Below the pieces are notes generated by a model that worked only from the letters and a program-made list of their open reading frames with translations, was not told where the DNA came from and ran no database searches. From Escherichia coli (GTDB lineage Bacteria > Pseudomonadota > Gammaproteobacteria > Enterobacterales > Enterobacteriaceae), in the NCBI RefSeq assembly GCF_013315695.1, contig NZ_CP054353.1: a stretch of DNA of 64,000 nucleotides; one strand, written 5' to 3'. Of this stretch, positions 14,553 to 39,980 are shown piece after piece. Numbering within the stretch: position 1 is the stretch's first letter; each line of letters opens with the position of its first letter. The position numbers were made by a program, and so were the translations under genes.

Positions 14553-14803
14553 TTTGCTTCCAGAAATGATAAAAAAATAATCAAAGGCCGGGGATTATAC
14601 GCTGTATCACGCGCGGAAATGAAGTGATGTTGATGAACGGTGGCGAAATACCCTGGTGAGGTTTTTCACTGCCCGACTTGGGCAAGCACATTTAAGGCTG
14701 GCGGTATCGTGGCAACTGCCGCTACTATTTATGCCGATCAGCAACGTTCAAATCATATTGCACGACGATCGGCTATCCGAGGACACCCACAGTAAGGCAA
14801 GGT

Positions 14804-15553: not shown

Positions 15554-15875
15554 CCTTCATTAGTCCAGAGCTGGCGGGAAAAATAACGCCGGCTCTGCCT
15601 TCCGCCCTCCACTGGTACACGCTCTCTTTTTAATTGGTCTAATAAATCGACTATCATCAGATATCTTAGATTAGCGGCAATTATCCCAAAAACTGACTTC
15701 TAAAAAACTTTCCTTTCATTTTATTCATATAACTCATTGATAAAAATATAAATAACGCCTTGTTGTTCTGTTTCGTACTTTTATCTTTCTCTGCAAGCGT
15801 GATGCATCTCTCTGTTTTTGGCCTAGTGAATTATGTAAATTGGTCTACACACAAGCCACCAGGAGTAAGAGCATA

Positions 15876-17348
15876 ATGTCAGGGAACGAAAGTATCAATG
15901 CCGCCCACTATGATCAGGTAACCACCTGGCCTCGGGACGGGTTACAGGCAGATATTGTCCATATTGGTTTTGGCGCTTTTCATCGCGGACACCAGGCGGT
16001 CTACACGGATCTCACTAATCAACTTTCGGACACCCGCTGGGGGATCTTTGAGATCAACCTGTTTGGTGATGCTCAACTGATCGAAAACTTAAATGCACAA
16101 AATGGGCTGTTTTCGGTTGTGGAAACATCTGCATCGCAATCTACCTCACGCCTTGTGCGTTCGGTGGCTGGCGGTATTCATACCCCCAGAGATGGCATTG
16201 CCGCAGCAATCCATAAACTGGCTGAACCTCAGGTAAAAATCGTTTCATTAACCATCACCGAGAAAGGTTATTGCCTCGATCCGCAAACACGTTCACTTGA
16301 TCTCACCAATGGATTAATCCAACACGATCTACAAAACCCGGATGCGCCTCTGTCAGCTATTGGCGTGATCGTCTGTGCTTTGCAACAACGTAAAGCGATA
16401 GGACTCGCCGCTTTTAGTGTGCTCTCCTGTGACAACTTGCCAGACAATGGGCATCTGACGCGCAATGCCGTTCTCGGTTTTGCCCGACAACTGGACCAGC
16501 CCCTGGCTCAGTGGATCGAAGAAAATGTCTCATTTCCAGGCACGATGGTAGATCGCATTGTTCCGGCAATGACTGAATCGCAATTCGCCTTACTGGAAAC
16601 GAAAACCGGTTATGCCGATCCCTGCGGGATCGTCTGCGAATCATTTCGTCAGTGGGTGATCGAAGATAATTTTGTGCGCGGACGACCGAAATGGGATAAA
16701 GCCGGCGCGATGTTTGTCAGCAATGTTCAGCCTTATGAAGAGATGAAGTTACGCATGTTAAATGGTAGCCATTCATTTCTGGCTTATAACGGCTCGCTGG
16801 CAGGCTATGAGTTTATCTGGCAATGCATGGAAGACGCTAATTTTCGTTCCATTACCCACCAACTGATGATTAATGAACAAGCCCGAACACTTAATCCAGA
16901 CTTAAATATCAACATCCAGGAATACGCCGACCTGTTAATTGAACGCTTTAGCAACCGTAACGTTGCACACCGTACCGGGCAAATAGCCATGGACGGTTCA
17001 CAAAAGCTTCCCCAGCGTGCACTGACGCCCTGGCTGAAATTACATCAGCAAAAGCAAAACAATGCTGTTCTGTCACTGCTCGTTGCTGGTTGGTTGCATT
17101 ATGTCATTGATGCTGTTGAGAAAAGCCAGTCTGTCGCTGATCCAATGAATGACCAATTTCAGGCGCTAATAAAGGAACAACAAGACGCATGGCAACAGGC
17201 GCTCGCATTACTGCACCTTAGCGCCATATTTGGTGATTTAAGCAACCATCAGCCATTTATAAATGAAATAAAAATCGCCTTTGCGAATATAAAAAACAAA
17301 GGCATCAAGGCCACCATCAGCCAATTATTATCGGATGAGCAGAAATGA
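15876..17348 (+). CDS. mannitol-dehydrogenase-family oxidoreductase (UxuB/fructuronate reductase-like)
   Basis: About 490 aa from the ATG preceded by AGGAGT; family-level resemblance only. Confidence 0.75.
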   Translation: MSGNESINAAHYDQVTTWPRDGLQADIVHIGFGAFHRGHQAVYTDLTNQLSDTRWGIFEINLFGDAQLIENLNAQNGLFSVVETSASQSTSRLVRSVAGGIHTPRDGIAAAIHKLAEPQVKIVSLTITEKGYCLDPQTRSLDLTNGLIQHDLQNPDAPLSAIGVIVCALQQRKAIGLAAFSVLSCDNLPDNGHLTRNAVLGFARQLDQPLAQWIEENVSFPGTMVDRIVPAMTESQFALLETKTGYADPCGIVCESFRQWVIEDNFVRGRPKWDKAGAMFVSNVQPYEEMKLRMLNGSHSFLAYNGSLAGYEFIWQCMEDANFRSITHQLMINEQARTLNPDLNINIQEYADLLIERFSNRNVAHRTGQIAMDGSQKLPQRALTPWLKLHQQKQNNAVLSLLVAGWLHYVIDAVEKSQSVADPMNDQFQALIKEQQDAWQQALALLHLSAIFGDLSNHQPFINEIKIAFANIKNKGIKATISQLLSDEQK

Positions 17349-18361
17349 AAACATTAATTTGTCAGCAGCCTGGCGTTATGGAATATGTGGAAAAGGATAT
17401 TCCCACACCAGCAGATAATGAAGTGCTGTTAAAAATCAAAGCTGTGGGTATTTGTGGTACTGATATTCACGCTTTTGCCGGCAGACAGCCTTTTTTTAGC
17501 TACCCACGTGTATTAGGTCATGAAATATGCGCCGAAGCGGTTTCGCGAGGCAGCCAGTGCCAAACAGCACAATCAGGCCAGCGCTATTCCGTCATCCCAT
17601 GCATTCCGTGTGGCGAGTGCGCAGCCTGTCGGGAAGAGAAAACGAACTGCTGCGAACGTGTTTCGCTGTATGGCGTGCATCAGGATGGGGGTTTTAGTGA
17701 GTACCTTGCGGTACGTGAAGACAACCTTGTGCCTCTCCCTGACGAGGTCAGCGACAGTGCCGGAGCATTGGTTGAATGTTTCGCCATTGGTGCACATGCC
17801 GTTCGTCGGGCAGAGATCAAGGCTGAACAAAACGTACTGGTGGTTGGCGCTGGGCCAATCGGTCTGGCTACCGCGGCCATCGCCAGGGCTAAAGGGGCGC
17901 ATGTTGTTGTTGCTGATATTGATTGTCAACGTCGCCAGCACGTTGTGGATCATCTGGCAATTAATGTCTTCGACCCAACACAGGAAGGTTTTATTGCCGC
18001 GCTTAGTGAAGTATTTGGCGGCGAACTGGCTTGCGTAGTCCTGGATGCGACGGGAAATAAAGCTTCAATGAGTCATGATGTAAATCTTATTCGTCATGGC
18101 GGCAAAATTGTTTTCATCGGTTTGTACATTGGTGAACTTGTTATTGACGATCCGACCTTCCATAAAAAAGAGACAACGTTACTCAGCAGCCGCAATGCCA
18201 CACGGGAAGATTTTGCGTTGGTGATTGAACTGATGCGCAGCAATAAAATTCACGAAAATTTAATGAAAAACCAGGCATTCAATTTCTTTAGTGTTGGCGA
18301 AGATTACCAGCGTAACGTTGTAGAAAATAAAAATATGGTCAAGGGTGTGATCACTTTTTAA
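17345..18361 (+). CDS. zinc-dependent medium-chain alcohol/polyol dehydrogenase
   Basis: 338 aa; GHE zinc motif, GAGPIGL NAD-binding motif; 4-bp ATGA overlap with the upstream gene. Confidence 0.8.
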   Translation: MKTLICQQPGVMEYVEKDIPTPADNEVLLKIKAVGICGTDIHAFAGRQPFFSYPRVLGHEICAEAVSRGSQCQTAQSGQRYSVIPCIPCGECAACREEKTNCCERVSLYGVHQDGGFSEYLAVREDNLVPLPDEVSDSAGALVECFAIGAHAVRRAEIKAEQNVLVVGAGPIGLATAAIARAKGAHVVVADIDCQRRQHVVDHLAINVFDPTQEGFIAALSEVFGGELACVVLDATGNKASMSHDVNLIRHGGKIVFIGLYIGELVIDDPTFHKKETTLLSSRNATREDFALVIELMRSNKIHENLMKNQAFNFFSVGEDYQRNVVENKNMVKGVITF

Positions 18362-18371
18362 GGGAACAAAT

Positions 18372-19382
18372 ATGACAACTGTTTATGTCAGTGAAGAAAA
18401 TTTAAAATCACTGGTGCACCACAAATTACATACCGCCGGGCTGGATACCGACACCACACAACAGGTGACAGATGTTTTAGTACATGCCGATATTACAGGT
18501 GTGCATTCACATGGTGTTATGCGTGTCGAACATTATTGCACCCGCCTTGCTGCCGGAGGGTTAAATAAAGCCCCGCAGTTTAGCATTGAGCAAATTTCAC
18601 CGTCAGTGGCCATTCTCGACTCTGACGACGGAATGGGGCATTCCGCATTAATTAGCGCCACTGAGCACGCTATTAAACTGGCCCAGCAAGAGGGCCTCGG
18701 TTTTGTTAGCGTTAAAAACACGTCTCACTGTGGTGCGTTATCTTATTTTGCAGAGATGATCACCAACAAAGGGTTGGTTGCTATCGTAATGACGCAAACC
18801 GATACCTGTGTGGCTCCCCATGGCGGCGCCGAGCGCTTTTTGGGAACTAACCCCATCGCCTTTGGTTTCCCGGTGGAAAACAGCCATCCGATGATTGTTG
18901 ATATGGCGACCAGTGCCACGGCTTTCGGCAAAATACTTCATGCAAAGGAAACCGGAAAACATATTGGTGAAGGGCTGGCGATAGATAAAAACGGTTATGG
19001 CACCACTGATCCGTATAAGATTGAAAACCTGCTACCTTTCGGCCAACACAAAGGTTCAGGCATTGCACTGGCTATTGATGCACTGACTGGCGTGCTGATG
19101 AATGCGAATTTTGGCAACCATATTGTTCGCATGTATGGTGATTATGACAAGATGCGTAAGCTGGCAAGTTTGGTTATTGCCATCGATCCGAAAAAGCTCG
19201 GCAATCCTGTTTTTGCAAAAACCATGGCGCAAATGGTCACGGAGTTGCATGCCGTTAAACCGGCTCCCGGTATCGAAAAAGTGTTAGCGCCGAACGATCC
19301 GCAAATGCACTACAAAGAAAAATGCCAACAGGAAGGTATTCCGGTTCCGGCAGGAATATTCCATTATCTGGCAGAGAATTAA
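18372..19382 (+). CDS. Ldh_2-family dehydrogenase (malate/L-lactate or diketogulonate reductase-like)
   Basis: 336 aa; family-level resemblance (YiaK/AllD-like). Confidence 0.75.
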   Translation: MTTVYVSEENLKSLVHHKLHTAGLDTDTTQQVTDVLVHADITGVHSHGVMRVEHYCTRLAAGGLNKAPQFSIEQISPSVAILDSDDGMGHSALISATEHAIKLAQQEGLGFVSVKNTSHCGALSYFAEMITNKGLVAIVMTQTDTCVAPHGGAERFLGTNPIAFGFPVENSHPMIVDMATSATAFGKILHAKETGKHIGEGLAIDKNGYGTTDPYKIENLLPFGQHKGSGIALAIDALTGVLMNANFGNHIVRMYGDYDKMRKLASLVIAIDPKKLGNPVFAKTMAQMVTELHAVKPAPGIEKVLAPNDPQMHYKEKCQQEGIPVPAGIFHYLAEN

Positions 19383-19454
19383 TCACTACTTTTTATTATA
19401 ACGATAGAAAAGCGCTGTATTTATCGTTTCTGTTATATTAACCAGGAGCAGGAT

Positions 19455-20264
19455 ATGAAAGCACTTCGTCCTCTGACGGCATCGCTTATGCTGTTAACCA
19501 GTTGTTTATTAATATCTAATACCACACTGGCAAAAATAACATTAAAACTGAGTCATAATCAGGATAAAAGCCATGCTGTCCATAAAGCATTAAGCTATTT
19601 AGCGGATAAAACCAAAGAGTATTCTAATGGTGAATTAGTTATTCGCATTTACCCAAATGCAACATTAGGTAATGAGCGTGAATCACTGGAATTAATGAAC
19701 TCCGGTGCATTACAGATGGTTAAGGTTAATGCCGCATCACTAGAATCATTTGCTCCAGATTACAGCCTTTTCAGTCTGCCGTTCTTATTCCGCGACCGTG
19801 ATCACTATTATCGTGTTCTGCAAAGTGATTTAGGTAAAAAAATACTTAATTCATCAGAAAGCAAAGGTTTTGTTGGTATTACGTACTATGACGGCGGTGC
19901 GAGAAGTTTTTATTCCAATAAACCGATTACAAAACCTGAAGATTTAGCGGGAATGAAAATCAGGGTTCAACAAAGCCCCAGCGCCATTGCAATGATGAAA
20001 GCACTCGGTGGTGTCGCTACCCCGATGGCGCAAGGCGAACTCTACACCGCACTTCAGCAAGGTGTGGTTGATGGCGGAGAGAACAATACCGTTGTCTATT
20101 CCGATATGCGTCACGCCGAAGTCGCAAAAGTCTATTCACGTGATGAACACACCATGGTACCTGATGTGTTAATTATCAGCACCGACGTGTTGAATAAACT
20201 TGGTGATAAAGAGCGCACGGCATTATTAAAAGCAGCCGGTGATGCTGCCAACTTACTGATTTAG
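19455..20264 (+). pseudogene. TRAP transporter solute-binding protein (DctP family), 3'-truncated by IS1
   Basis: Signal peptide plus DctP-like sequence for 261 codons; last 8 codons (GDAANLLI*) are encoded by the IS1 terminal repeat. Confidence 0.75.
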
Positions 20265-20292
20265 TGTATGATGGTGTTTTTGAGGTGCTCCA

Positions 20293-20568
20293 GTGGCTTC
20301 TGTTTCTATCAGCTGTCCCTCCTGTTCAGCTACTGACGGGGTGGTGCGTAACGGCAAAAGCACCGCCGGACATCAGCGCTATCTCTGCTCTCACTGCCGT
20401 AAAACATGGCAACTGCAGTTCACTTACACCGCTTCTCAACCCGGTACGCACCAGAAAATCATTGATATGGCCATGAATGGCGTTGGATGCCGGGCAACAG
20501 CCCGCATTATGGGCGTTGGCCTCAACACGATTTTACGTCACTTAAAAAACTCAGGCCGCAGTCGGTAA
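20293..20568 (+). CDS. insA: IS1 InsA
   Basis: 91 aa; zinc-finger/HTH protein typical of IS1. Confidence 0.9.
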
Positions 20569-20990
20569 CCTCGCGCATACAGCCGGGCAGTGACGTCATC
20601 GTCTGCGCGGAAATGGACGAACAGTGGGGCTATGTCGGGGCTAAATCGCGCCAGCGCTGGCTGTTTTACGCGTATGACAGGCTCCGGAAGACGGTTGTTG
20701 CGCACGTATTCGGTGAACGCACTATGGCGACGCTGGGGCGTCTTATGAGCCTGCTGTCACCCTTTGACGTGGTGATATGGATGACGGATGGCTGGCCGCT
20801 GTATGAATCCCGCCTGAAGGGAAAGCTGCACGTAATCAGCAAGCGATATACGCAGCGAATTGAGCGGCATAACCTGAATCTGAGGCAGCACCTGGCACGG
20901 CTGGGACGGAAGTCGCTGTCGTTCTCAAAATCGGTGGAGCTGCATGACAAAGTCATCGGGCATTATCTGAACATAAAACACTATCAATAA
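20487..20990 (+). CDS. insB: IS1 InsB frame (transposase made by an InsAB' frameshift)
   Basis: 167-aa ORF overlapping insA in the -1 frame. Confidence 0.9.
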
Positions 20991-21004
20991 GTTGGAGTCA
21001 TTAC

Positions 21005-21046
21005 CGATTATGTCTACAGCAAAGAGTTGTATATCAAGGCACATTG
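21005..21046 (+). pseudogene. ygiS: orphaned 3' end of ygiS (DYVYSKELYIKAH*), displaced by the IS1-bounded inversion
   Basis: First 9 bp gattatgtc are the reverse complement of gacataatc at 26938..26946, which abuts the truncated ygiS; reading on yields ten codons and a stop, restoring the expected 535-aa length. Confidence 0.6.
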
Positions 21047-21184
21047 ATGTCTTTATCGCCGTCGGAGCACGTCCGGCGGCGCTATTCACGCTGATCTCCT
21101 GTGACTCGACGCGGCAGATAATGTAGTATCTCCGGCAATATTGCCCCTTTGAAGGCTGGCGAATAAGTTGAGGAATCAGAATTA

Positions 21185-23443
21185 ATGAGCGATATGGCAG
21201 AGCGCCTTGCGCTACATGAATTTACGGAAAACGCCTACTTAAACTACTCCATGTACGTGATCATGGACCGTGCGTTGCCGTTTATTGGTGATGGTCTGAA
21301 ACCCGTTCAGCGGCGCATTGTGTATGCGATGTCTGAACTGGGTCTGAATGCCAGTGCCAAATTTAAAAAATCGGCCCGTACCGTCGGTGACGTACTGGGT
21401 AAATACCATCCGCACGGCGATAGTGCCTGTTATGAAGCGATGGTCCTGATGGCGCAGCCGTTCTCTTACCGTTATCCGCTGGTTGATGGTCAGGGGAACT
21501 GGGGCGCGCCGGACGATCCGAAATCGTTCGCGGCAATGCGTTACACCGAATCCCGGTTATCGAAATATTCTGAGTTGCTATTAAGCGAGCTTGGACAGGG
21601 GACGGCTGACTGGGTGCCAAACTTCGACGGCACCTTACAGGAGCCGAAAATGCTGCCAGCCCGCCTGCCGAACATTTTGCTTAACGGCACCACCGGTATT
21701 GCCGTCGGCATGGCGACCGATATTCCACCGCATAACCTGCGTGAAGTGGCTCAGGCGGCAATCGCATTAATCGACCAGCCGAAAACCACGCTCGATCAGC
21801 TGCTGGATATCGTGCAGGGGCCGGATTATCCGACTGAAGCGGAAATTATCACTTCGCGCGCCGAGATTCGTAAAATCTACGAGAACGGACGTGGTTCAGT
21901 GCGTATGCGCGCGGTTTGGAAGAAAGAAGATGGCGCGGTGGTTATTAGCGCATTGCCGCATCAGGTTTCAGGTGCGCGCGTACTGGAGCAAATTGCTGCG
22001 CAAATGCGCAACAAAAAGCTGCCGATGGTTGACGATCTGCGCGATGAATCTGACCACGAGAACCCGACCCGTCTGGTGATTGTGCCGCGTTCCAACCGCG
22101 TGGATATGGATCAGGTGATGAACCACCTCTTTGCTACCACCGATCTGGAAAAGAGCTATCGCATTAACCTCAATATGATCGGTCTGGATGGTCGTCCGGC
22201 GGTGAAAAACCTGCTGGAAATCCTCTCCGAATGGCTGGTGTTCCGCCGCGATACCGTGCGCCGCCGACTGAATTATCGTCTGGAGAAAGTCCTCAAGCGC
22301 CTGCATATCCTCGAAGGTTTGCTGGTGGCGTTTCTCAATATCGACGAAGTGATTGAGATCATTCGTAATGAAGATGAACCGAAACCGGCGCTGATGTCGC
22401 GGTTTGGCCTTACTGAAACCCAGGCGGAAGCGATCCTCGAACTGAAACTGCGTCATCTTGCCAAACTGGAAGAGATGAAGATTCGCGGTGAGCAGAGTGA
22501 GCTGGAAAAAGAGCGCGACCAGTTGCAGGGCATTTTGGCTTCCGAGCGTAAAATGAATAACCTGCTGAAGAAAGAACTGCAGGCAGACGCGCAAGCCTAC
22601 GGTGACGAACGTCGTTCGCCGTTGCAGGAACGCGAAGAAGCGAAAGCGATGAGCGAGCACGACATGCTGCCGTCTGAACCTGTCACCATTGTGCTGTCGC
22701 AGATGGGCTGGGTACGCAGCGCTAAAGGCCATGATATCGACGCGCCGGGCCTGAATTATAAAGCGGGCGATAGCTTCAAAGCGGCGGTGAAAGGTAAGAG
22801 CAACCAACCGGTAGTGTTTGTTGATTCCACCGGTCGTAGCTATGCCATCGACCCGATTACGCTGCCGTCGGCGCGTGGTCAGGGCGAACCGCTCACCGGC
22901 AAATTAACGTTGCCGCCTGGAGCGACCGTTGACCATATGCTGATGGAAAGCGACGATCAGAAACTGCTGATGGCTTCCGATGCGGGTTACGGTTTCGTCT
23001 GCACCTTTAACGATTTGGTGGCGCGTAACCGTGCAGGTAAGGCTTTGATCACCTTACCGGAAAATGCCCATGTTATGCCGCCGGTGGTGATTGAAGATGC
23101 TTCCGATATGCTGCTGGCAATCACTCAGGCAGGCCGTATGTTGATGTTCCCGGTAAGCGATCTGCCGCAGCTGTCGAAGGGCAAAGGCAACAAGATTATC
23201 AACATTCCATCGGCAGAAGCCGCGCGTGGAGAAGATGGTCTGGCGCAACTGTACGTTCTGCCGCCGCAAAGCACGCTGACCATTCATGTTGGGAAACGCA
23301 AAATTAAACTGCGTCCGGAAGAGCTACAGAAAGTCACTGGCGAACGTGGACGCCGCGGTACGTTGATGCGCGGTTTGCAGCGTATCGATCGTGTTGAGAT
23401 CGACTCTCCTCGCCGTGCCAGCAGCGGTGATAGCGAAGAGTAA
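21185..23443 (+). CDS. parC: DNA topoisomerase IV subunit A
   Basis: 752 aa; GyrA/ParC family. Confidence 0.95.
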
Positions 23444-25971: not shown

Positions 25972-26170
25972 TCAGGTCGAAAATAATCCTGGCAGCATCA
26001 GACTAAGCTGCGGGAAATAACAAATAATTGCCATTACTACAAACAATGCCAGAAACATCGGCAGTAATGGTTTTATTGCCCTGTCGATACTGACCTTACC
26101 AATGCTGCACCCCACAAACAGAATGGTGCCGACAGGTGGTGTGCAAAGGCCAATGGTTAAGTTGAAAACG
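25972..26170 (-). pseudogene. C-terminal remnant of a TRAP transporter large permease (DctM-like), cut by IS1
   Basis: Minus-strand translation from the IS1 junction: VFNLTIGLCTPPVGTILFVGCSIGKVSIDRAIKPLLPMFLALFVVMAIICYFPQLSLMLPGLFST*; no start codon. Confidence 0.6.
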
Positions 26171-26184
26171 GTAATGACTCCAAC

Positions 26185-26688
26185 TTATTGATAGTGTTTT
26201 ATGTTCAGATAATGCCCGATGACTTTGTCATGCAGCTCCACCGATTTTGAGAACGACAGCGACTTCCGTCCCAGCCGTGCCAGGTGCTGCCTCAGATTCA
26301 GGTTATGCCGCTCAATTCGCTGCGTATATCGCTTGCTGATTACGTGCAGCTTTCCCTTCAGGCGGGATTCATACAGCGGCCAGCCATCCGTCATCCATAT
26401 CACCACGTCAAAGGGTGACAGCAGGCTCATAAGACGCCCCAGCGTCGCCATAGTGCGTTCACCGAATACGTGCGCAACAACCGTCTTCCGGAGCCTGTCA
26501 TACGCGTAAAACAGCCAGCGCTGGCGCGATTTAGCCCCGACATAGCCCCACTGTTCGTCCATTTCCGCGCAGACGATGACGTCACTGCCCGGCTGTATGC
26601 GCGAGGTTACCGACTGCGGCCTGAGTTTTTTAAGTGACGTAAAATCGTGTTGAGGCCAACGCCCATAATGCGGGCTGTTGCCCGGCAT
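26185..26688 (-). CDS. insB: IS1 InsB frame
   Basis: Protein identical to the copy-1 InsB. Confidence 0.9.
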
Positions 26689-26882
26689 CCAACGCCATTC
26701 ATGGCCATATCAATGATTTTCTGGTGCGTACCGGGTTGAGAAGCGGTGTAAGTGAACTGCAGTTGCCATGTTTTACGGCAGTGAGAGCAGAGATAGCGCT
26801 GATGTCCGGCGGTGCTTTTGCCGTTACGCACCACCCCGTCAGTAGCTGAACAGGAGGGACAGCTGATAGAAACAGAAGCCAC
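26607..26882 (-). CDS. insA: IS1 InsA
   Basis: Protein identical to the copy-1 InsA. Confidence 0.9.
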
Positions 26883-26910
26883 TGGAGCACCTCAAAAACA
26901 CCATCATACA

Positions 26911-28512
26911 CTAAATCAGTAAGTTGGCAGCATCACCGACATAATCCTGGGGATTATGCAGCGGAAAACCGCCAACGTAGGGTTTAAGCAGTTTGATTAA
27001 CGGCTGATAATAGACAGGAATGAGCGGTGCCTGCTGGTTGATGATCACTTCTGCCTGCTGATACAACGCATTACGCTTTGTTGCATCAGCCGTTTGTGCC
27101 GCCTGGTTTAGTAAGGCGTCATACTGCGCGTTTTTCCAGTGGCCGACATTTTCCTCGCTATCGCTCTTAAGCGTGTTCAGAAAGGTGGAGGCATCATTGT
27201 ACGTCGCATCCCACGACTGCCGAGACAACATGAAATCACCGGCTCGTCGGGCATCAAGATAAGTTTTCCACTCCATTGTGCGCAGCGTCACCTGTGCACC
27301 CAGCCATTTTTTCCATTCGGAAGACAACGCTATCGCGGTCTTTTCATGCAGATCGTACTTGTTGTAGAACAGCTCAAAGCGAAGCGGATGAGAGGCGTCG
27401 TATCCCGCCTGTTTCAACAAGGCTTTTGCCATCGCGACGCGCTCACTCAGCGGCTTTTGCAGTTCATCGAACGTCGTCGCGCTAAAGCCTTTTACCTCTG
27501 GCGGCGTCAGCGTAGTTGCGGGCGTTCTCAACCCCAGTACCTTTTGCGCAATAAGCTGTCGATCAACCGTAAGATATAGCGCCCGACGCACCCGCACATC
27601 GTTAAATGGCGGTTTCTCAAGGTTGAAGTTGTAATATTCGCTGTTCAGACGCGGAATAATTCGTAGCTCGCCAGGCAGTGATTTTTCAATGGCGGGAATT
27701 TGCTGCGCCGGAACCCAGGTGAGATCGACCTCTCCCGCGCGATAGCGGTTATAGCCGGTGACCGAATTATCCAGCGCCAGATACTCAACCTGTTGCAATA
27801 CTGTATGTTGCGCATCGCGGTACTTTGGATTTTTGCGTGCAGTAATCTTTTCGTTAACTACCCACTGATCAAGCACAAAGGCACCGTTGTAAACCATGTT
27901 CTCTGGCTTACTCCAGCTATCGCCATGTTTAGCGATGACATGATGAGGAACCGGGAACAGCGTCGGCCAGGCGAGCATCGTCGTGAACCAAGGAACTGGC
28001 TGCTCAAGCGTAACTTCAAGAGTACGATCATCCATCGCTTTGACACCCAGCGATGTAACATCTGCTTTACCCGCAACAATAGCCGCGGCATTGTTAATGT
28101 GCGCCTGTGCCAGATAGCCAGCAAAAGGGCTTGCCGTTTTCGGGTCAACCGCACGTTGCCAGCCGAGGACAAAATCCTCTGCTGTCAGAGGCTGACCGTC
28201 TGACCACTGCAAACCGCTACGCAGATGGAAAATATAGCGCTTGCCGCCGTCCAGTATCTCCCAGCGTTCAGCCTGAGCGGGCTGCACCTGGCCTTCACCG
28301 TCCATCCATACCAGACCTTCAAACAGATCCAGCACAATCTGCGCGGCAGTATTCTCCTCTACCTTTTGCGGGTCGAGCGTGCCTGGGTCGCTATGATTGT
28401 TGTAACGAAAAACTTGTTGCGGGGCGAGCGGTGTGTTGGCGGGAACGTCAGCAGCGTAGAGAGGAGCCGCACTTACCAGGCTGACCAGCCATAATAAATT
28501 TCGCGTATACAT
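26911..28512 (-). CDS. ygiS: periplasmic oligopeptide-type ABC substrate-binding protein with an IS1-encoded C-terminal tail
   Basis: 533 aa; signal peptide; SBP family 5; last 8 aa GDAANLLI come from the IS1 end (native part 26938..28512). Confidence 0.75.
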   Translation of the reverse strand: MYTRNLLWLVSLVSAAPLYAADVPANTPLAPQQVFRYNNHSDPGTLDPQKVEENTAAQIVLDLFEGLVWMDGEGQVQPAQAERWEILDGGKRYIFHLRSGLQWSDGQPLTAEDFVLGWQRAVDPKTASPFAGYLAQAHINNAAAIVAGKADVTSLGVKAMDDRTLEVTLEQPVPWFTTMLAWPTLFPVPHHVIAKHGDSWSKPENMVYNGAFVLDQWVVNEKITARKNPKYRDAQHTVLQQVEYLALDNSVTGYNRYRAGEVDLTWVPAQQIPAIEKSLPGELRIIPRLNSEYYNFNLEKPPFNDVRVRRALYLTVDRQLIAQKVLGLRTPATTLTPPEVKGFSATTFDELQKPLSERVAMAKALLKQAGYDASHPLRFELFYNKYDLHEKTAIALSSEWKKWLGAQVTLRTMEWKTYLDARRAGDFMLSRQSWDATYNDASTFLNTLKSDSEENVGHWKNAQYDALLNQAAQTADATKRNALYQQAEVIINQQAPLIPVYYQPLIKLLKPYVGGFPLHNPQDYVGDAANLLI

Positions 28513-28620
28513 GGTATTCCTTACCGGAGAAATTATAAGCCCGACAACAATACGCCTGTGGCATTGTTAGCTCAAACTTATCGCGAGTGATTTGGCTCAC
28601 ACTCCGGTAAAGATTCCCCA

Positions 28621-29103
28621 TCACGCTAACGGTACATAAACATCCGTTTCCAGTCGCTGCTCTGTCATCCCTTCGGCAAGATTGGTGTAGTGAAACAGGA
28701 TCGGGGCTTTGCGCATTTTTTCGCCGCTTGCCGGAAGCCAGTGGCGAATGATGCCCCATATCGTGTGTGAAATATCGTCCAGCTCGCCAACATGGCGGGC
28801 CACAGCATAACGTCCACCGGTAAGTTCACCATTACTTACGCCATAACGATTATCGGGGATCGGTTCGCTAACGCTGCCGCAGATATCAAAGCGAAACGCT
28901 TCTGGTGCGGTGGTGGCAGGGTCGTCCCAGGCGACGCCAAAAGTCTGGCTTTGGTTAACAGGAGAAAGCCCCGTCTCTTTACGCCACATGATAAATTTCG
29001 CCACGCTGTAGTTGAGCAACTCAGGGCTACAGCGGTGCGGCAACATCGCCACAGGGATTGAGGGGAAATCGATAATATTTACATCCAGTGTCAGGTTTGT
29101 CAT
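28621..29103 (-). CDS. ygiV: GyrI-like small-molecule-binding transcription factor
   Basis: 160 aa. Confidence 0.7.
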   Translation of the reverse strand: MTNLTLDVNIIDFPSIPVAMLPHRCSPELLNYSVAKFIMWRKETGLSPVNQSQTFGVAWDDPATTAPEAFRFDICGSVSEPIPDNRYGVSNGELTGGRYAVARHVGELDDISHTIWGIIRHWLPASGEKMRKAPILFHYTNLAEGMTEQRLETDVYVPLA

Positions 29104-29155: not shown

Positions 29156-29548
29156 TTACGGATTTACTTTGCGGATCTGTTTGACGTCAATTTCAACAGA
29201 GTTCCAGTCTTTATCGACTTCACCCTGAATCTCAACCGTATCTTTCGGCGTCACCGTCACGCCGTTCCAGCGTTTGTGATCGATATCCACATTGATAGTA
29301 CCGCTGGCATCTTTGAACACGTAGAGATCGTCAGAGATGCGTTCAACGATATTGCCGCGCAGGGTTACCCAGGTGTCGTCACGCAGGGATTTTGCGCTTT
29401 CTACGGTCGTTACGCTGCCGTTCGGCCCCTGGAATCCTCCGGCCTGACTTTGCGTTGCCGATGGGCCAGAAAAACCTCCCTGCTCTGCTGCCATAACCGG
29501 TGCACTGCACAGGGCCATTACTGCGATTACTGCTGCGAATTTTTTCAT
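29156..29548 (-). CDS. ygiW: BOF/YgiW-family periplasmic OB-fold protein
   Basis: 130 aa from MKKFAAVIAV...; signal peptide; GGGAG RBS. Confidence 0.75.
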   Translation of the reverse strand: MKKFAAVIAVMALCSAPVMAAEQGGFSGPSATQSQAGGFQGPNGSVTTVESAKSLRDDTWVTLRGNIVERISDDLYVFKDASGTINVDIDHKRWNGVTVTPKDTVEIQGEVDKDWNSVEIDVKQIRKVNP

Positions 29549-31705: not shown

Positions 31706-31814
31706 GGGTAAGACTTTTGCTAAATTCGCAAAAGACTTTGCACATTTTGCTAATTTCACCGTACCGCTCTGTGACGTACTATAGTCGGCAAACGTCTCAC
31801 CTTGAGGTTAAAAA

Positions 31815-32785: not shown

Positions 32786-33673
32786 TTAGCCATTCTTTCT
32801 TCCCGTTTTCAGTCCTCGATGGAAATCGTTAATTCGCTTAATGGTTTTAACCGCACGCTGCGGCACTGCGGAAGCTACCGACCAGACAATCATTTCCAGA
32901 CACAACAATACCGTACCATGTAGCGGCGTTTTCCCTTTTTCATCCCCGCGCGGAACATGAATCACGATACTGGCGTCTTTGCTAAAACGTGAATCCAGCG
33001 CGTTTGTCAGCAAAATAACAGGGATCCCCAGCCGCCTCGCCTCACGAAGCGTTGTCAGCCCTTCCCGGTGCGCAGATTTTTGCGCCATCATGATCAGAAC
33101 ATCGCCACGTTGAAGCGCGATCAGTTGCTCGGCAAGGCCAATACCCGTACGGTTTAGTGCCGTGGCAGGCAAACCTATGCGGTTGAATAGTCGTGCGGTA
33201 TAGTCCGCCAGGATACCCGAAGCGCCAATGCCAAAAATAGCGACTTGCCGTGCCTGCACCAACAACGCTACAGCTTGCGCAAGCGCGTGGCGGTTTTCAG
33301 GCTCTGACAGGACATTACAGGTATACAAATGCCCTTCAAGAACAAAGTCGATTGCGGTGTTAACATCGCTCGTCAAGTTACTCACCGTCGTAGACATCTT
33401 TTCGCTGGAACTAAGGGCTGGACCAAGCCACTGTTCCAGAGTGCGTTTCAGATCACGCAGCCCGGCAAACCCCAGGGCCTGTATAGCCCTGATAACAGTG
33501 GCATCGGAAGTGTTCAACGTGGCCGCAATTTCCATCGCCGTTTGCTCGAGTACCACTTCACGATGCTCATTAATGTAGCTGGCGACAGCTCTTAACCCAG
33601 GCGTTAACTGACTCGCGCGAGTGCGAAAACGCTCACCAAAAATATCAACCCGCGCTTTATCTTTCTGGATCAT
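32786..33673 (-). CDS. RpiR/MurR-family regulator (HTH_6 plus SIS domain)
   Basis: 295 aa; last gene of the ABC transporter operon, 4-bp overlap with the binding-protein gene. Confidence 0.8.
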   Translation of the reverse strand: MIQKDKARVDIFGERFRTRASQLTPGLRAVASYINEHREVVLEQTAMEIAATLNTSDATVIRAIQALGFAGLRDLKRTLEQWLGPALSSSEKMSTTVSNLTSDVNTAIDFVLEGHLYTCNVLSEPENRHALAQAVALLVQARQVAIFGIGASGILADYTARLFNRIGLPATALNRTGIGLAEQLIALQRGDVLIMMAQKSAHREGLTTLREARRLGIPVILLTNALDSRFSKDASIVIHVPRGDEKGKTPLHGTVLLCLEMIVWSVASAVPQRAVKTIKRINDFHRGLKTGRKNG

Positions 33674-34617
33674 TTAGCCTCCGGTAGAGGTCGCCCTGCA
33701 ATTTGTGATTGTATCTGCGCAGCCATCAGCCCCAGTGATGCAAAGGAGTTAGAAATTGCCTCTTCACGAGAAATCAGCACATAACGCCCGGAACGACAGG
33801 CAGTCAGAAACTGACACCATCCCGGCATGACTTTTTCCATTGCTGCCAGCTCATCCTGAGGTTTACCACCGGTGTCACCGCGCCAGGTTGCAAAAACAAA
33901 ATCGGCATCCAGTTCAGGTAAACGCTCCGCGCTCACATCCATTCGCCCACCTTCAGGAATGCTCTCAATCAGCGGCGGAAAACGAAAACCAGCATCGCGT
34001 AATACCCGCCCCAGCGAATGATAGCTATGCATCACATTAATTTTTCCCTGGTTTGCCTGAATCACCGATACCGTTATTTTTTGGCTGTCCAGCGTCGCCT
34101 TCAGCGCATTGATTTGTGCCTGATAGCGGCGTTCAAGTATCGCCAGCTGCGACTGCGTTCCTGTAAGTTCTGCCAGCTTGCGATAGATTTCTGGCGCGCC
34201 CCCTTTGAGATGATCAATGCTCACCGTGGGCGCAATTTTTTCAAGTTGTTCAATGGGCGTATTACGGGTCGGTTCTGTGATGATCAAGTCAGGCTTTGCC
34301 GCCACAATCGCTTCAATATCAATATCAGCGGTACCAATAAAGGCGATCGATGAATTATCAAAGTCGACACCTGTCAATAACGCGCCAGATCGAATGAAAT
34401 GGCTACCGTCAGGCCGAGTTCGCCCGTGGCTGGCGACAGGAGGTACACCGAGCTCAATCAGAGGAATAGTGATATCAAGATCGTGTAAAGAGACAATTCT
34501 CTTTGGATGAGCAGGAACAGTGACTTTGCGCCCTAAATCATCAGTAAATACCTGAACAGGTTCTGTTGCACGGGAAAAAAATGACAACAGTATCAGCAGA
34601 GAAAAAAATAAACGCAT
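33670..34617 (-). CDS. periplasmic iron-siderophore/cobalamin-type ABC substrate-binding protein
   Basis: About 315 aa from MRLFFSLLILLSFFSRA (signal peptide); GGGAG RBS. Confidence 0.8.
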   Translation of the reverse strand: MRLFFSLLILLSFFSRATEPVQVFTDDLGRKVTVPAHPKRIVSLHDLDITIPLIELGVPPVASHGRTRPDGSHFIRSGALLTGVDFDNSSIAFIGTADIDIEAIVAAKPDLIITEPTRNTPIEQLEKIAPTVSIDHLKGGAPEIYRKLAELTGTQSQLAILERRYQAQINALKATLDSQKITVSVIQANQGKINVMHSYHSLGRVLRDAGFRFPPLIESIPEGGRMDVSAERLPELDADFVFATWRGDTGGKPQDELAAMEKVMPGWCQFLTACRSGRYVLISREEAISNSFASLGLMAAQIQSQIAGRPLPEAK

Positions 34618-34627
34618 ATAACTCCCG

Positions 34628-35677
34628 TTAAAAACTGTTCCTGCGCTGCCAGAGCAGTAGCAAAAAAAATGGTCCACCAATCAGTGAGATAATGATTCCG
34701 GCAGGCAGTTGCAAAGGCAAAAAAGCCAAACGACCAATGCTATCCGCCAGAATAACTAACAACGCCCCCGATACCGCACTCCCCAGCAGTAATGTCGTCT
34801 GCCCGCCACGTAGAATAAAACGTGATATATGGGGTGCTATCAATCCGACAAAACCGATGTTACCAACACACGAAACGCAGACGGCTGTCAGGATTATGGG
34901 TGCGGCGACACGTAACAACGCCAGACGAGAACTATTCACCCCTAACCCGGTTGCAACCTGATGACCAAGCAGAGCGATATCCGCCGTCCTGGCGGTGAAC
35001 AGCAATAAAAGAGCGGCTGGCAACATCCAACAGGCTGAAATACCGACTAACATCCAGTTAGCTGCATGCAGGCTTCCCGATAACCACATCAATGCAGTTT
35101 GTACATCTCGAACATCTGCAGTGGTCATAAATACACCGATACCGGCGGCGAAAAACCAAGAAACACCAATACCAATCAGAACAAATCGCGGGCGGGAAAT
35201 ATCGCGCGCACAAAAAATCACGATTAAAGCCACCAACAGGCCACCAGCAAGACCAGCCACTGGACGCCAGAACACTCCCAGCATTGGAAACTGGAAAATC
35301 AGCCACAGCACAGCCACGCTACATCCTTCTTTGACGCCGATTAACCCAGGATCGGCAAGGCCGTTACGTGCAATGGATTGCATTGCGGCCCCTGCCATAC
35401 CTAACATGGCCCCGCATAGCAATGCCATGATGACTCTCGGCAAGCGAATATCCTGCACAATATAACGTGCGTCTGTGCTTACGTTTTCTGGAGCAAACAA
35501 CGCTCGTCCTACTTCCGATGCCGGAACAGAGAAAGAACCCTGCATCAGACCGAATATCAGTATTCCAACCGCAAACAGAAACAGCCCACCAAGCAACAGC
35601 AGATTTTTAGGGCGTACCAGTGTCGAAAACTTACCAACACGTAGTGGGCGTAGCCCGACGTTCATTATCCGACTCAT
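34628..35677 (-). CDS. FecCD-family ABC permease
   Basis: 349 aa polytopic membrane protein. Confidence 0.8.
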   Translation of the reverse strand: MSRIMNVGLRPLRVGKFSTLVRPKNLLLLGGLFLFAVGILIFGLMQGSFSVPASEVGRALFAPENVSTDARYIVQDIRLPRVIMALLCGAMLGMAGAAMQSIARNGLADPGLIGVKEGCSVAVLWLIFQFPMLGVFWRPVAGLAGGLLVALIVIFCARDISRPRFVLIGIGVSWFFAAGIGVFMTTADVRDVQTALMWLSGSLHAANWMLVGISACWMLPAALLLLFTARTADIALLGHQVATGLGVNSSRLALLRVAAPIILTAVCVSCVGNIGFVGLIAPHISRFILRGGQTTLLLGSAVSGALLVILADSIGRLAFLPLQLPAGIIISLIGGPFFLLLLWQRRNSF

Positions 35678-36657
35678 TTGAACATCCTCGTCGCCATAAT
35701 GACAAAAACAGGCGCACCAACTAACGCCGTCATGACACCGGTCGCTAATTCATGGGGCGTGAAAAGCGTACGGGCAATAATATCTGCCAGTAATAACAAA
35801 AGTGCGCCGACACAAGCTGAAAGAGGGAGCAGAACGCGCAGATCCGCTGATACCAGGCGCCGGACAATCTGCGGTACTAGCAGGCCGACAAAACCAATGG
35901 GGCCAGCAATCGATACGGCTGCGCCACAGAGCAACGCGATCGCAAGCAGGGTGAATGTTCGCGTGCGGAGTACAGAGACGCCCAGCCCCTGCGCCATGCG
36001 ATCGCCCAGTGCCAACATGTTAAGGGAGGGTGCAAGGTAAAGGGCTAACACAAATCCCCCCAGAGAAAACCAGGCGGACGTACCCAGCGTCGCCCAATCC
36101 TGCCCCGCTAAATCACCTGCTAGCCATGTCCGCATCGCCAGCAGTGTTTGTTCGTCAAGAATCAGGATTGCAGCCGTTATTGAGGACACGAACGCCGATA
36201 GCGCCACGCCGCATAAAGTAACTTTCATTGGCGTTAACCCTGAACGCCCTGCGGAGGAAAGCAGCAATATCAACAGGAACAATAACGCGCCGCCCGTAGA
36301 TGCCAGCAGTGGGCGTCCAACCGGAAAGGCCAGCCCAAGCGCACTGGCAGCAACGACAGCAAGAGCGGCTCCGGCATTTAAGCCTAAAATATGTGGCTCC
36401 CCCAATGGGTTACGAATGACAGCCTGCAACAAAGCACCAGCAACTCCAAGAGAAGCACCGGTAAGCAATGCTGCCGCTAAACGCGGCAAACGGAGTCTTA
36501 CAATTACGTTGTGATCGAAGTTTTGCGGTTCAAAATGAAGAAATGCCTGCAATACCGTTTGTGGTGCAATAAATCGGGCACCAATCCCTGGATATACCAC
36601 GCATCCCACCAGCAGTAAGGCGAGGAAAATTACAGTAACCAGCCCTGTGCGCATCAT
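35674..36657 (-). CDS. FecCD-family ABC permease
   Basis: 327 aa; 4-bp overlap with the neighbouring genes. Confidence 0.8.
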   Translation of the reverse strand: MMRTGLVTVIFLALLLVGCVVYPGIGARFIAPQTVLQAFLHFEPQNFDHNVIVRLRLPRLAAALLTGASLGVAGALLQAVIRNPLGEPHILGLNAGAALAVVAASALGLAFPVGRPLLASTGGALLFLLILLLSSAGRSGLTPMKVTLCGVALSAFVSSITAAILILDEQTLLAMRTWLAGDLAGQDWATLGTSAWFSLGGFVLALYLAPSLNMLALGDRMAQGLGVSVLRTRTFTLLAIALLCGAAVSIAGPIGFVGLLVPQIVRRLVSADLRVLLPLSACVGALLLLLADIIARTLFTPHELATGVMTALVGAPVFVIMATRMFK

Positions 36658-37463
36658 ACTTTTTCTACACCACGAAACGGCATGAAGAACGGCTTTCCCG
36701 TCAGAGGATTTATTGATGCGTGAACATCAACGTCAAAGACAGCTTTTACCAGCTCAGGCGTGCAATGCTCCCCCTCATTCAACACACGCACCACTTTCCC
36801 CTGGCGTAAAAATATCAACGTATCGCCATAATTGACGGCAAAATTCAGATCATGCAACACCACGACGACTGTACGCCCGTGATGACGTGTTAAATCATGT
36901 AATAACTCAAGAATTTCAACCTGATAACGTAAATCAAGCCAGGTTGTGGGTTCATCCAGCAGGATATAAGGCGTCTTTTGCGCCAACACCATCGCAATCC
37001 AGCAACGCTGACGCTGCCCGCCAGAGAGTTTTTCAACAGGTAAATGTGCAAACTCCTGCGTACCCGTTAATTTCAGGGCCTCTTCTACCGCCAGCTCATC
37101 GGCGTCGCTCCATTGACGAATGAAATTCTGCCAGGGAAAACGCCCACGCGACACCAGTTCATAAACGGTTAAGCCCTCCGGCAATAATGGCGACTGCGGC
37201 AAGATCCCAAGTCTACGGGATAACGCTTTCGTTGGTTGCTCGTGAATCGCTTTGCCATCAAGCAATATCGAACCGCCCATGGGTTGCAAGATACGTGCAA
37301 TGGTGCTGAGCAACGTCGACTTTCCACAGCCGTTTGCCCCAACCAGAACGGTCATTTTTTCTGTGGGAACGGAGAAAGAAACACCATCAACAATGATCTT
37401 CTTGTGATACCCGGCAGAAACATTGTCGAGGATCAGCCCCTGCCCTTTTGCGTTATGTGCCAC
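36654..37463 (-). CDS. ABC transporter ATP-binding protein (FecE/FepC-like)
   Basis: 269 aa; Walker A GANGCGKST, signature LSGGQRQR. Confidence 0.85.
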   Translation of the reverse strand: MAHNAKGQGLILDNVSAGYHKKIIVDGVSFSVPTEKMTVLVGANGCGKSTLLSTIARILQPMGGSILLDGKAIHEQPTKALSRRLGILPQSPLLPEGLTVYELVSRGRFPWQNFIRQWSDADELAVEEALKLTGTQEFAHLPVEKLSGGQRQRCWIAMVLAQKTPYILLDEPTTWLDLRYQVEILELLHDLTRHHGRTVVVVLHDLNFAVNYGDTLIFLRQGKVVRVLNEGEHCTPELVKAVFDVDVHASINPLTGKPFFMPFRGVEKV

Positions 37464-37717
37464 GTGTACGCCAACTTAATCAAAGACAAACAAAAATAAA
37501 ACTCATTCTCCTTTGAGAGTTTGACGCCACAAAATGTAGTAGTCAAGCAGTTAAAAGCCACACAAAAACAAGGTAAATAACAGGTAAAATATTTTTGCAC
37601 ATAAAAATAAAAACATTAAATATCAATAATTTAAAAGCAATCAAATTGTATAAACTTTTCATAAAAACACATGTAGCAATTTTTTGTTATTTCTCATTTA
37701 CTACTACATTACTGCGT

Positions 37718-37738
37718 GATTGAATGATTCTCAATTAC
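37718..37738. promoter_or_regulatory. candidate Fur box in the divergent promoter region of the iron-uptake locus
   Basis: gattgaatgattctcaattac, partial match to the Fur consensus, in a 370-bp AT-rich spacer. Confidence 0.3.
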
Positions 37739-37836
37739 ATATCCGATGGCGAAATAACAAACGGATAGTGCTTAGTGAGCAATAAGAAACAATTTTCACT
37801 CGCGACAATCCGCGAGTTTTTGGGATAACAGACTAA

Positions 37837-39978
37837 ATGGCTATGTTCACACCTTCATTCTCAGGACTCAAAGGTCGGGCGCTCTTTTCACTGCTTTTTG
37901 CGGCACCGATGATTCATGCAACAGACTCTGTAACGACCAAAGATGGCGAAACAATCACTGTTACAGCAGATGCAAATACCGCAACTGAGGCAACCGATGG
38001 TTATCAACCTCTGAGCACCTCTACGGCGACATTAACCGATATGCCGATGCTGGATATCCCGCAGGTGGTCAATACGGTTAGCGATCAGGTTCTGGAAAAC
38101 CAGAATGCGACAACGCTGGATGAGGCGCTTTATAACGTCAGTAACGTGGTACAGACCAATACATTAGGCGGGACTCAGGATGCTTTTGTACGCCGTGGGT
38201 TTGGCGCAAACCGGGATGGCTCCATCATGACCAACGGCCTGCGAACTGTACTTCCTCGCAGTTTCAACGCCGCCACAGAACGTGTGGAAGTGCTAAAAGG
38301 TCCGGCCTCCACGCTGTATGGCATTCTCGATCCTGGTGGATTGATTAACGTCGTGACCAAGCGCCCGGAAAAAACATTCCATGGTTCTGTCTCAGCCACG
38401 TCCTCCAGTTTTGGCGGAGGCACTGGGCAACTTGATATCACAGGTCCCATTGAAGGCACTCAGCTGGCATACCGCCTGACGGGGGAAGTGCAGGATGAAG
38501 ATTACTGGCGAAACTTCGGTAAAGAGCGCAGTACATTTATTGCCCCGTCACTCACCTGGTTTGGTGATAATGCAACAGTAACCATGCTCTATTCCCATCG
38601 GGACTATAAAACTCCGTTCGATCGTGGAACGATTTTCGACCTTACGACGAAACAGCCCGTAAACGTTGATCGAAAAATACGTTTTGACGAACCGTTTAAT
38701 ATTACAGATGGTCAGTCCGATCTGGCGCAACTCAACGCAGAATATCATCTCAATAGCCAGTGGACAGCGCGCTTTGATTACAGCTACAGCCAGGATAAAT
38801 ACAGCGACAATCAGGCTCGCGTTACCGCGTATGATGCAACGACAGGAACGCTGACACGGCGTGTTGATGCAACTCAGGGATCTACCCAGCGTATGCATTC
38901 TACTCGTGCGGATCTGCAAGGGAATGCTGATATTGCTGGGTTCTATAATGAGATTCTGGGTGGGGTGTCATATGAATATTATGATCTTCTGCGCACAGAT
39001 ATGATTCGCTGTAAAAACGCTAAAGATTTCAATATCTACAACCCCGTTTATGGCAATACCAGCAAATGCACAACGGTTTCGGCGTCGGACAGTGATCAGA
39101 CGATCAAACAGGAGAGCTACTCAGCGTATGCACAGGACGCGCTCTATCTGACCGATAACTGGATTGCCGTCGCCGGGATCCGCTATCAGTATTACACGCA
39201 GTATGCGGGTAAAGGCCGTCCTTTTAATGTCAATACTGACAGCCGCGATGAACAATGGACGCCCAAACTGGGGTTAGTCTACAAACTGACGCCATCGGTA
39301 TCCTTATTTGCCAATTATTCGCAAACATTTATGCCGCAGTCGTCAATTGCCAGCTACATTGGCGATCTTCCACCGGAATCATCTAATGCTTACGAAGTCG
39401 GGGCAAAATTCGAGCTATTCGATGGTATCACCGCAGATATTGCGCTGTTTGATATCCATAAACGTAACGTGTTGTATACCGAAAGTATTGGTGATGAAAC
39501 CATTGCCAAAACGGCAGGCCGTGTTCGTTCAAGAGGGGTAGAAGTCGACCTTGCGGGAGCATTAACTGAAAACATTAATATCATTGCCAGCTACGGCTAT
39601 ACCGATGCTAAGGTTCTGGAGGATCCTGATTATGCAGGGAAACCATTGCCGAATGTTCCTCGTCATACCGGTTCGCTATTCCTGACTTATGACATTCATA
39701 ACATGCCTGGCAATAACACACTGACGTTTGGCGGTGGTGGACATGGCGTAAGCCGTCGTTCGGCAACCAATGGGGCTGACTATTATCTGCCAGGCTATTT
39801 CGTTGCCGATGCCTTCGCTGCATACAAAATGAAATTGCAGTATCCGGTCACACTGCAATTAAACGTCAAAAACCTGTTTGATAAAACGTATTACACCTCT
39901 TCCATCGCCACAAATAATCTGGGGAATCAGATTGGCGATCCGCGTGAAGTGCAATTCACGGTGAAAATGGAATTTTGA
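37837..39978 (+). CDS. TonB-dependent outer-membrane siderophore-type receptor
   Basis: 713 aa; signal peptide; TonB-box-like ETITVTA; C-terminal aromatic residue (F). Confidence 0.85.
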   Translation: MAMFTPSFSGLKGRALFSLLFAAPMIHATDSVTTKDGETITVTADANTATEATDGYQPLSTSTATLTDMPMLDIPQVVNTVSDQVLENQNATTLDEALYNVSNVVQTNTLGGTQDAFVRRGFGANRDGSIMTNGLRTVLPRSFNAATERVEVLKGPASTLYGILDPGGLINVVTKRPEKTFHGSVSATSSSFGGGTGQLDITGPIEGTQLAYRLTGEVQDEDYWRNFGKERSTFIAPSLTWFGDNATVTMLYSHRDYKTPFDRGTIFDLTTKQPVNVDRKIRFDEPFNITDGQSDLAQLNAEYHLNSQWTARFDYSYSQDKYSDNQARVTAYDATTGTLTRRVDATQGSTQRMHSTRADLQGNADIAGFYNEILGGVSYEYYDLLRTDMIRCKNAKDFNIYNPVYGNTSKCTTVSASDSDQTIKQESYSAYAQDALYLTDNWIAVAGIRYQYYTQYAGKGRPFNVNTDSRDEQWTPKLGLVYKLTPSVSLFANYSQTFMPQSSIASYIGDLPPESSNAYEVGAKFELFDGITADIALFDIHKRNVLYTESIGDETIAKTAGRVRSRGVEVDLAGALTENINIIASYGYTDAKVLEDPDYAGKPLPNVPRHTGSLFLTYDIHNMPGNNTLTFGGGGHGVSRRSATNGADYYLPGYFVADAFAAYKMKLQYPVTLQLNVKNLFDKTYYTSSIATNNLGNQIGDPREVQFTVKMEF

Positions 39979-39980
39979 TC

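Follow-up and report, generated by a model that had tools for sequence, protein, structure and literature searches.

The empty ygiS-ygiV spacer of an Escherichia coli clone as the probable ancestral, never-occupied allele of the mqsRA insertion site

Introduction

The mqsR-mqsA pair of Escherichia coli K-12, a type II toxin-antitoxin (TA) module also known as ygiU-ygiT (b3022-b3021), has drawn attention through a range of MqsRA-dependent phenotypes reported in that strain, namely effects on biofilm, persistence, control of GhoT and bile tolerance. Type II TA systems as a class belong to the accessory genome, and none of them is conserved across the strains MG1655, W, EDL933 and UTI89 (Fraikin et al. 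2020, PMC7167474). For their uneven distribution among E. coli phylogroups the same article cites Fiedoruk et al. 2015 together with Ramisetty and Santhosh 2016, and for one strain, NRG857c, no MqsRA homologue has been reported (PMC7232551). The presence/absence polymorphism described for such TA islets typically involves a small, AT-rich module lying between core genes and occurring in some lineages, and mqsRA is alike in all of these respects.

A close parallel is ccdO157, a chromosomal TA module that in some E. coli occupies the short intergenic spacer between folA and apaH, a spacer that is empty in others, much as mqsRA occupies the one between ygiS and ygiV (Mine et al. 2009, cited in PMC7167474). 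Carriers of ccdO157 are reported to show decay by point mutation, whereas the mqsRA copies found here, occasional IS1 insertions aside, all stood at 99% identity or more. The absence of mqsRA from a strain is thus already known in kind, and the case described here does not differ in kind from published TA polymorphism; what we add, with overlap with the primary data assumed, are exact boundaries, polarity from outgroups and population counts for a single locus. At the ccdO157 locus it is K-12 that presumably shows the unoccupied state, with a folA-apaH spacer that is short and empty of the module.

Here we describe the ygiS-ygiV spacer in a 64-kb stretch of E. coli DNA, referred to below as the window, by which we mean the whole of the sequence analysed. 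We compare it with K-12-type genomes, with other Escherichia species and with a large collection of complete E. coli genomes, and we weigh the histories that could have left the site without mqsRA.

Results

A 108-bp spacer in place of the K-12 cassette

Both genes that flank the spacer are read from the minus strand (Table 1), and the distance between the start codon of ygiS (ATG, appearing as 'cat' at 28510-28512) and the stop codon of ygiV ('tca' at 28621-28623) is 108 bp. The original prediction, made from the sequence, had given this same figure, and the ORF coordinates reproduce it exactly. The identities of the two genes are secure: they rest on family matches and on the annotation of AF3, a near-identical complete genome in which they are named ygiS and ygiV. 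Only one ORF extends across the spacer (28448..28759, minus strand, 103 aa), and a Pfam search with it gave no match.

Table 1. Features of the ygiS-ygiV region and of the inversion borders, in window coordinates
Feature	Coordinates	Strand	Description and basis
IS1 copy A	20238..21005	+	Inversion border, abuts truncated TRAP binding-protein gene; exact IS1 terminal repeats, flanks, AF3 annotation
IS1 copy B	26170..26937	-	In 3' end of ygiS, other inversion border; exact IS1 terminal repeats, 100% identical to copy A
ygiS	26911..28512	-	OppA-like periplasmic binding protein, 533 aa; NCBIfam NF007287, 1258 bits over residues 1-526
Inverted-repeat 3' arm (RNA)	28513..28529	-	17 nt, contains ygiS Shine-Dalgarno AAGGA; repeat search (82% complementary), RNA fold
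ygiV-ygiS spacer	28513..28620	-	Unoccupied mqsRA insertion site and ygiS leader; sequence, ORFs, alignments to K-12 and outgroups
Inverted-repeat 5' arm (RNA)	28602..28618	-	17 nt, pairs with Shine-Dalgarno arm; repeat search, RNA fold
TTCCC	28614..28618		5 bases standing in for the K-12 927-bp cassette, 2 nt beyond the ygiV stop; pairwise alignment and exact boundaries
ygiV	28621..29103	-	GyrI-like domain regulator, 160 aa; PF06445, E 5e-36
ygiW	29156..29548	-	OB-fold stress protein, upstream neighbour on the same strand; TIGR00156, E 1e-65, AF3 annotation

K-12, which according to the original prediction carries mqsRA between these two genes, indeed does so: in the K-12-like laboratory genome g62 the annotated order is ygiS-mqsA-mqsR-ygiV-ygiW-qseB-qseC, and MG1655 and other K-12 records match the g62 cassette at 100%, so that ygiS and ygiV are not direct neighbours there. 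Pairwise alignment of the window with the K-12-type region is collinear on both sides of mqsRA. On the left, alignment continues as far as window 28613 (...CCGGTAAAGA); it resumes on the right at window 28619 with CATCACGC, 2 nt past the ygiV stop, leaving 927 bp in K-12 opposite TTCCC in the window. This cassette holds a hairpin with a T-run after mqsA, the genes mqsA and mqsR themselves and the mqsR promoter region, and the alignment places two ACCT-AAAA-AGGT palindromes (ACCT-N4-AGGT) inside it, upstream of mqsR. At 41.1%, its G+C content is lower than that of ygiS and ygiV (52-53%) and of the window as a whole (50.6%), and such AT-richness is suggestive of a horizontal origin. The cassette ends show neither a target-site duplication nor terminal repeats, a search for direct and inverted repeats having returned chance 7-mers only. 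The two loci thus share chromosomal position and flanking sequence; where K-12 has the mqsA terminator, mqsA, mqsR and the palindrome promoter, the window has five ancestral bases instead.

The absence of mqsRA from this site in the strain, as originally proposed, is confirmed by searches of the whole window. Using the K-12 proteins as tblastn queries, we found no gene for MqsR (PF15723, a RelE-like RNase; best E 2.4) or MqsA (PF15731, zinc ribbon and HTH-XRE; best E 1.6) in the 64 kb, while the same two proteins, as positive controls, matched PF15723 at 5.5e-35 and PF15731 at 7e-56. In a blastn comparison of the cassette DNA with the window only chance matches of 12-25 nt appeared, and the palindrome promoter was not present.

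Outgroups place the empty site as ancestral

A scan of species-representative genomes with YgiV yielded five Escherichia loci, from E. albertii, E. whittamii, two further Escherichia species and one divergent genome titled E. coli, with none from E. fergusonii, Salmonella or Citrobacter. Within about 10 kb of the site, tblastn found neither MqsR nor MqsA in any of the five. In all of them ygiV is followed directly by ygiS or by what remains of it: three have an intact ygiS about 110 bp after ygiV, and the other two, both from other Escherichia species, have only ygiS remnants. The spacer of the window aligns base for base with those of E. albertii, E. whittamii and one other Escherichia genome, and the pentamer GGGAA (the reverse complement of TTCCC) or a near variant of it, missing from K-12, is present in the outgroups.

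The locus therefore shows what would be looked for in an ancestral unoccupied islet site, that is, collinear flanks and a site sequence held in common with islet-free outgroups; the cassette, for its part, shows what would be looked for in an islet, namely a foreign composition and a single constant junction in its carriers. Because five other Escherichia representatives share the uninterrupted spacer, the empty site is, by the polarity that this small set of genomes provides, the ancestral state and mqsRA the insertion. For the same reason, the statement that this strain 'lacks' mqsRA is best taken to mean that the module never arrived, not that it was lost.

We consider it very probable that the spacer is an ancestral, never-occupied allele and that mqsRA is an AT-rich islet, inserted once in a subset of E. 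coli that includes K-12 and spread by descent and recombination. The 927-bp islet would have entered a single time, its point of entry lying 2 nt past the ygiV stop codon, where the ygiS leader hairpin has its outer edge, and would have replaced five bases in the process. Later it would have been inherited vertically and exchanged between strains through homologous recombination involving long stretches of flanking DNA, and the window lineage would carry an allele that never received it. We infer the single origin of the islet from sequence identity and from the constancy of its junction, and the never-occupied status of the window lineage likewise rests on these two observations.

Distribution of the cassette among complete genomes

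Among 5,426 complete RefSeq E. coli genomes, which form a biased sample, the cassette was present in 2,299 (42.4%), and an empty, contiguous junction was found in 3,111 (57.3%). The latter comprise 1,357 genomes (25.0%) in which ygiS has been replaced by a 236-bp filler and, by subtraction, about 1,754 (32%) in which ygiS is kept, as in the window. Genomes with the empty site include O157:H7, Nissle 1917, 536 and ATCC 25922, and carriers of mqsRA include K-12, B-derived strains, ATCC 8739 and 042.

The 2,299 cassette copies, all of them within the 1% divergence given above, are chromosomal only, and their number was the same in the megablast and blastn 'distant' modes; an identical ygiS-mqsA junction occurs in 2,294 of the carriers. 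In every match listed the occupied site spans about 2,222-2,223 bp, corresponding to the 1,301-bp probe and a constant insert of about 922 bp. Moreover, the extra places produced by split junctions (7,723 - 5,424 = 2,299) equal the mqsRA-positive genomes in number, which fits mqsRA being found solely at the ygiS-ygiV site. The state seen in the window is the original and the commonest one at this site, and the absence of mqsRA, correct as it is, is ordinary. The description of the ygiS-ygiV interval as the usual site of the module stands for a K-12-centred view only; population-wide, the K-12 arrangement is the minority (42%, as against 57% empty).

A mosaic genome and the case for allelic replacement

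Strain KE40 has the accessory island of the window, with a GntR-family regulator, dehydrogenases and a TRAP transporter. Gene by gene, from this regulator through to ftsP, the two sequences show 0-2 mismatches, two of the TRAP genes being partial in the window. From plsC to parE the difference rises to 1.0-4.3%, and KE40 equals g62 at 100% in ten genes (parC, mqsA, mqsR, ygiV, ygiW, qseC, ygiZ, mdaB, ygiN and the available part of parE). The comparison of the KE40 locus (8407-22546) with the window thus delimits a recombination tract with one breakpoint near ftsP/plsC. This one mosaic genome shows, at the level of its sequence, that mqsRA moves with its flanks by homologous recombination; that such recombination is the general route of mqsRA spread is what we infer from it. 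The most economical reading is that the islet was inserted once, long ago, and was then passed on both vertically and by transfer together with long homologous flanks.

If recombination across the locus does happen, as KE40 demonstrates, it could also have run in the other direction: an ancestor of the strain may have had mqsRA and swapped the region for an empty-site allele, a history that would sit well with the occurrence of both mqsRA-positive and mqsRA-negative strains among genomes with 99.8% identical ftsP-TRAP sequence. In KE40, however, it is the mqsRA-bearing stretch that looks imported, with more than 12 kb that match the K-12-like genome at 100%, and the background island of KE40 was not found in the available g62 sequence. 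Furthermore, the ygiS, ygiV and qseC alleles of the window lie 2.7-4.3% from the K-12 type, as expected of an old independent allele. Such a secondary loss is unlikely on this evidence, and even if it had taken place, the allele now present would itself never have held the cassette.

A further difference in this region concerns ygiZ (DUF2645), which is absent between qseC and mdaB in the window, where 109 bp (31706-31814) correspond to about 700 bp including the gene in K-12-type genomes. This small presence/absence difference is 3 kb away from the mqsRA site, and in KE40 ygiZ has been transferred together with mqsRA.

Searches beyond the spacer

As the window covers 64 kb only, mqsRA might have relocated to another part of the chromosome or to a plasmid, or an assembly collapse might have produced the junction. 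Two near-identical genomes bear on this: AF3, a UK blood-culture isolate, is collinear with the window and differs by 7 SNPs in 64 kb, and MSB1_4I, from an Australian rectal swab, differs by 1 SNP in 19 kb. A composite probe, made up of the lineage-specific ftsP-TRAP junction and the mqsRA cassette, found two places in mqsRA-positive relatives and a single place on each of the AF3 and MSB1_4I chromosomes, where it matched by its ftsP part only and gave no second place for mqsRA. Plasmid-borne mqsRA was found in none of 20,395 records (chromosomes and plasmids), even at blastn sensitivity. Since the probe gives the ftsP place only on both chromosomes and no plasmid in these records carries the cassette, the clone appears to be without any mqsRA, at the DNA level and as judged on near-identical genomes; the genome-wide absence of mqsR and mqsA thus extends from the window to the AF3 chromosome and the plasmids of the collection. 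The equality of 2,299 carriers and 2,299 extra split-junction places also speaks against relocation, and the identical junction in 3,111 independently finished genomes against a collapse, which makes either event highly improbable here.

A precise deletion of the 927-bp cassette from a K-12-like allele, for which there is nothing specific beyond the general point that TA modules can decay or be deleted, as the cited account of ccdO157 illustrates (Mine et al. 2009, cited in PMC7167474), is not credible and is effectively refuted, in that excision would have had to restore five ancestral bases that are missing from K-12 junctions and match the outgroup sequence base for base, with no flanking repeats to mediate it, between flanks that diverge from the K-12 alleles and with no cassette remnant found in the window.

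An IS1-bounded inversion next to ygiS

The window also differs from K-12-type genomes on the far side of ygiS, where a 5.9-kb segment between the two IS1 copies (Table 1) is inverted. It comprises parC-plsC-ftsP and a 206-bp tail of the TRAP large-permease gene, and the essential topoisomerase IV gene parC is thereby flipped relative to K-12. The new joints, GATTATGTC and GACATAATC, are the same 9 bp of the uninverted reference KE40 (13294-13302) in opposite orientation, and each IS1 copy has one old joint and one new joint. The copies are inverted, the 9-bp target duplication is inverted, and one copy lies inside and the other outside the segment, all as in known inversions by IS1 replicative transposition. 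Because the 9-bp target copies lie in inverted orientation, the sequence bears the signature of intramolecular replicative IS1 transposition, by which the inversion would have arisen. Unlike in a plain IS1 inversion, the IS1 flanks in the window also imply an earlier deletion in the TRAP genes. The TRAP transporter operon, which belongs to an accessory island of the sugar-acid type, is broken (19455-20237 and 25972-26169). Its binding-protein gene breaks off at about nt 783, no small permease is left and the large permease is down to about 200 bp, remnants that point to the loss of about 1.8 kb beside the original IS1. The inversion is common to AF3 and MSB1_4I, and MSB1_4I also shares the ygiS truncation and the TRAP loss.

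The IS1 target falls within the last 11 codons of ygiS. Native ygiS sequence runs from 26938 to 28512, and the last 8 codons and the stop are supplied by the IS1 end (26911-26937), with the result that the native 10 C-terminal residues YSKELYIKAH give way to 8 IS1-encoded residues, GDAANLLI. Up to the stop, the C-terminus reads ...PQDYVGDAANLLI in the window and ...PQDYVYSKELYIKAH in K-12-type genomes, so that the window protein ends in ...DYVGDAANLLI and not in ...DYVYSKELYIKAH.

Other differences in gene content lie further away. Between ygiN and parE (window 32786-39980) there is an accessory island, absent from K-12-type genomes, that encodes a MurR/RpiR regulator, a TonB-dependent receptor and an iron-siderophore ABC transporter made up of a binding protein, two FecCD permeases and an ATPase. 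At about 48600-51800, ygiC and ygiD are separated by an assT-dsbL-dsbI cluster, for arylsulfate sulfotransferase. Further along the window, at about 58400, the annotation also places a type I toxin gene, ibsE, downstream of yqiK.

The spacer as the leader of ygiS

Read as RNA from the minus strand, the spacer is predicted to fold at -49.6 kcal/mol (z = -4.4), with none of 200 shuffled sequences as stable. In the predicted fold an outer helix of 12-17 bp pairs UCUUUACCGGAG with CUCCGGUAAGGA, the latter containing the ygiS Shine-Dalgarno. The K-12 cassette abuts this helix and replaces the outer 5 nt of its 5' arm. Across six Escherichia leader alleles the fold was kept with 0 compensatory pairs, support for the structure being thermodynamic only, and a permissive Rfam search of 28400-28750 returned no family. 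We therefore regard the ygiS leader element as a lead and not as a demonstrated regulator.

A scan for sigma-70-like promoters found no site between 28350 and 28800, and a terminator scan of the same interval gave one weak hairpin that lacks a proper T-run and does not exceed what shuffled sequence gives. With the mqsA terminator and the mqsR promoter missing here, and nothing in the spacer that convincingly matches a terminator or a sigma-70 promoter, transcription from ygiV may run on into ygiS.

The 236-bp filler seen in 1,357 genomes is single-copy and replaces ygiS except for its first 22 nt and last 35 or so; one example is found in E. coli O91:H21 (locus 4765-5000). On its left side the filler begins about 6 bp or less from the point targeted by IS1 in the window strain. 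The filler is 93% identical to a region annotated as 'group II intron maturase' in one genome, and a search of Rfam with the 236 bp gave no match; from that one annotated region we have the impression of a group II intron remnant.

Discussion

The comparison of the ygiS-ygiV interval across K-12-type genomes, other Escherichia and a large set of complete E. coli genomes leads us to a reading in which the 108-bp spacer would be an old, unoccupied allele and the K-12 arrangement the derived one. One question is whether the presence or absence of mqsRA has consequences for ygiS. The strain presumably lives without the MqsR RNase and the MqsA repressor. Published accounts of a specific link between MqsR and ygiS contradict each other. 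According to the model of Kwan et al. 2015, MqsR cleaves the ygiS mRNA and thereby protects against deoxycholate; Fraikin et al. 2019 were unable to reproduce this and raised the suspicion that polar effects on ygiS were at work (PMC6918082).

In our dataset, ygiS is kept next to mqsA in 2,294 of 2,299 mqsRA-positive genomes and lost in 1,357 of 3,111 mqsRA-negative ones. This association is striking, but it largely reflects one deletion event and is thus confounded by phylogeny. One could nevertheless imagine that the site is not simply neutral and that there is a functional coupling, as in the contested bile-salt model of Kwan et al. 2015, in which MqsR or the cassette itself would insulate or restrain ygiS and module-free strains would come under pressure to silence or lose the gene; the thought arises because ygiS is disrupted in several mqsRA-free backgrounds (by the filler, as remnants and by IS1) and because the islet sits at the edge of the leader helix. 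We give this little credence and hold such coupling to be quite improbable.

As for the locus itself, K-12 is not the reference state for the ygiS-ygiV interval, a point whose importance reaches little beyond bookkeeping. In annotation, the 108 bp are best recorded as the leader native to ygiS, not as the scar of a deletion. Taken with the polarity given by the outgroups and the mosaic structure of KE40, the exact boundaries of the cassette make a clean worked example of how a TA islet may enter once and then travel with its flanks by homologous recombination. Furthermore, the phenotypes attributed to MqsRA in K-12 can play no part in the 57% of sequenced E. coli without the module, the bloodstream clone of the window among them.
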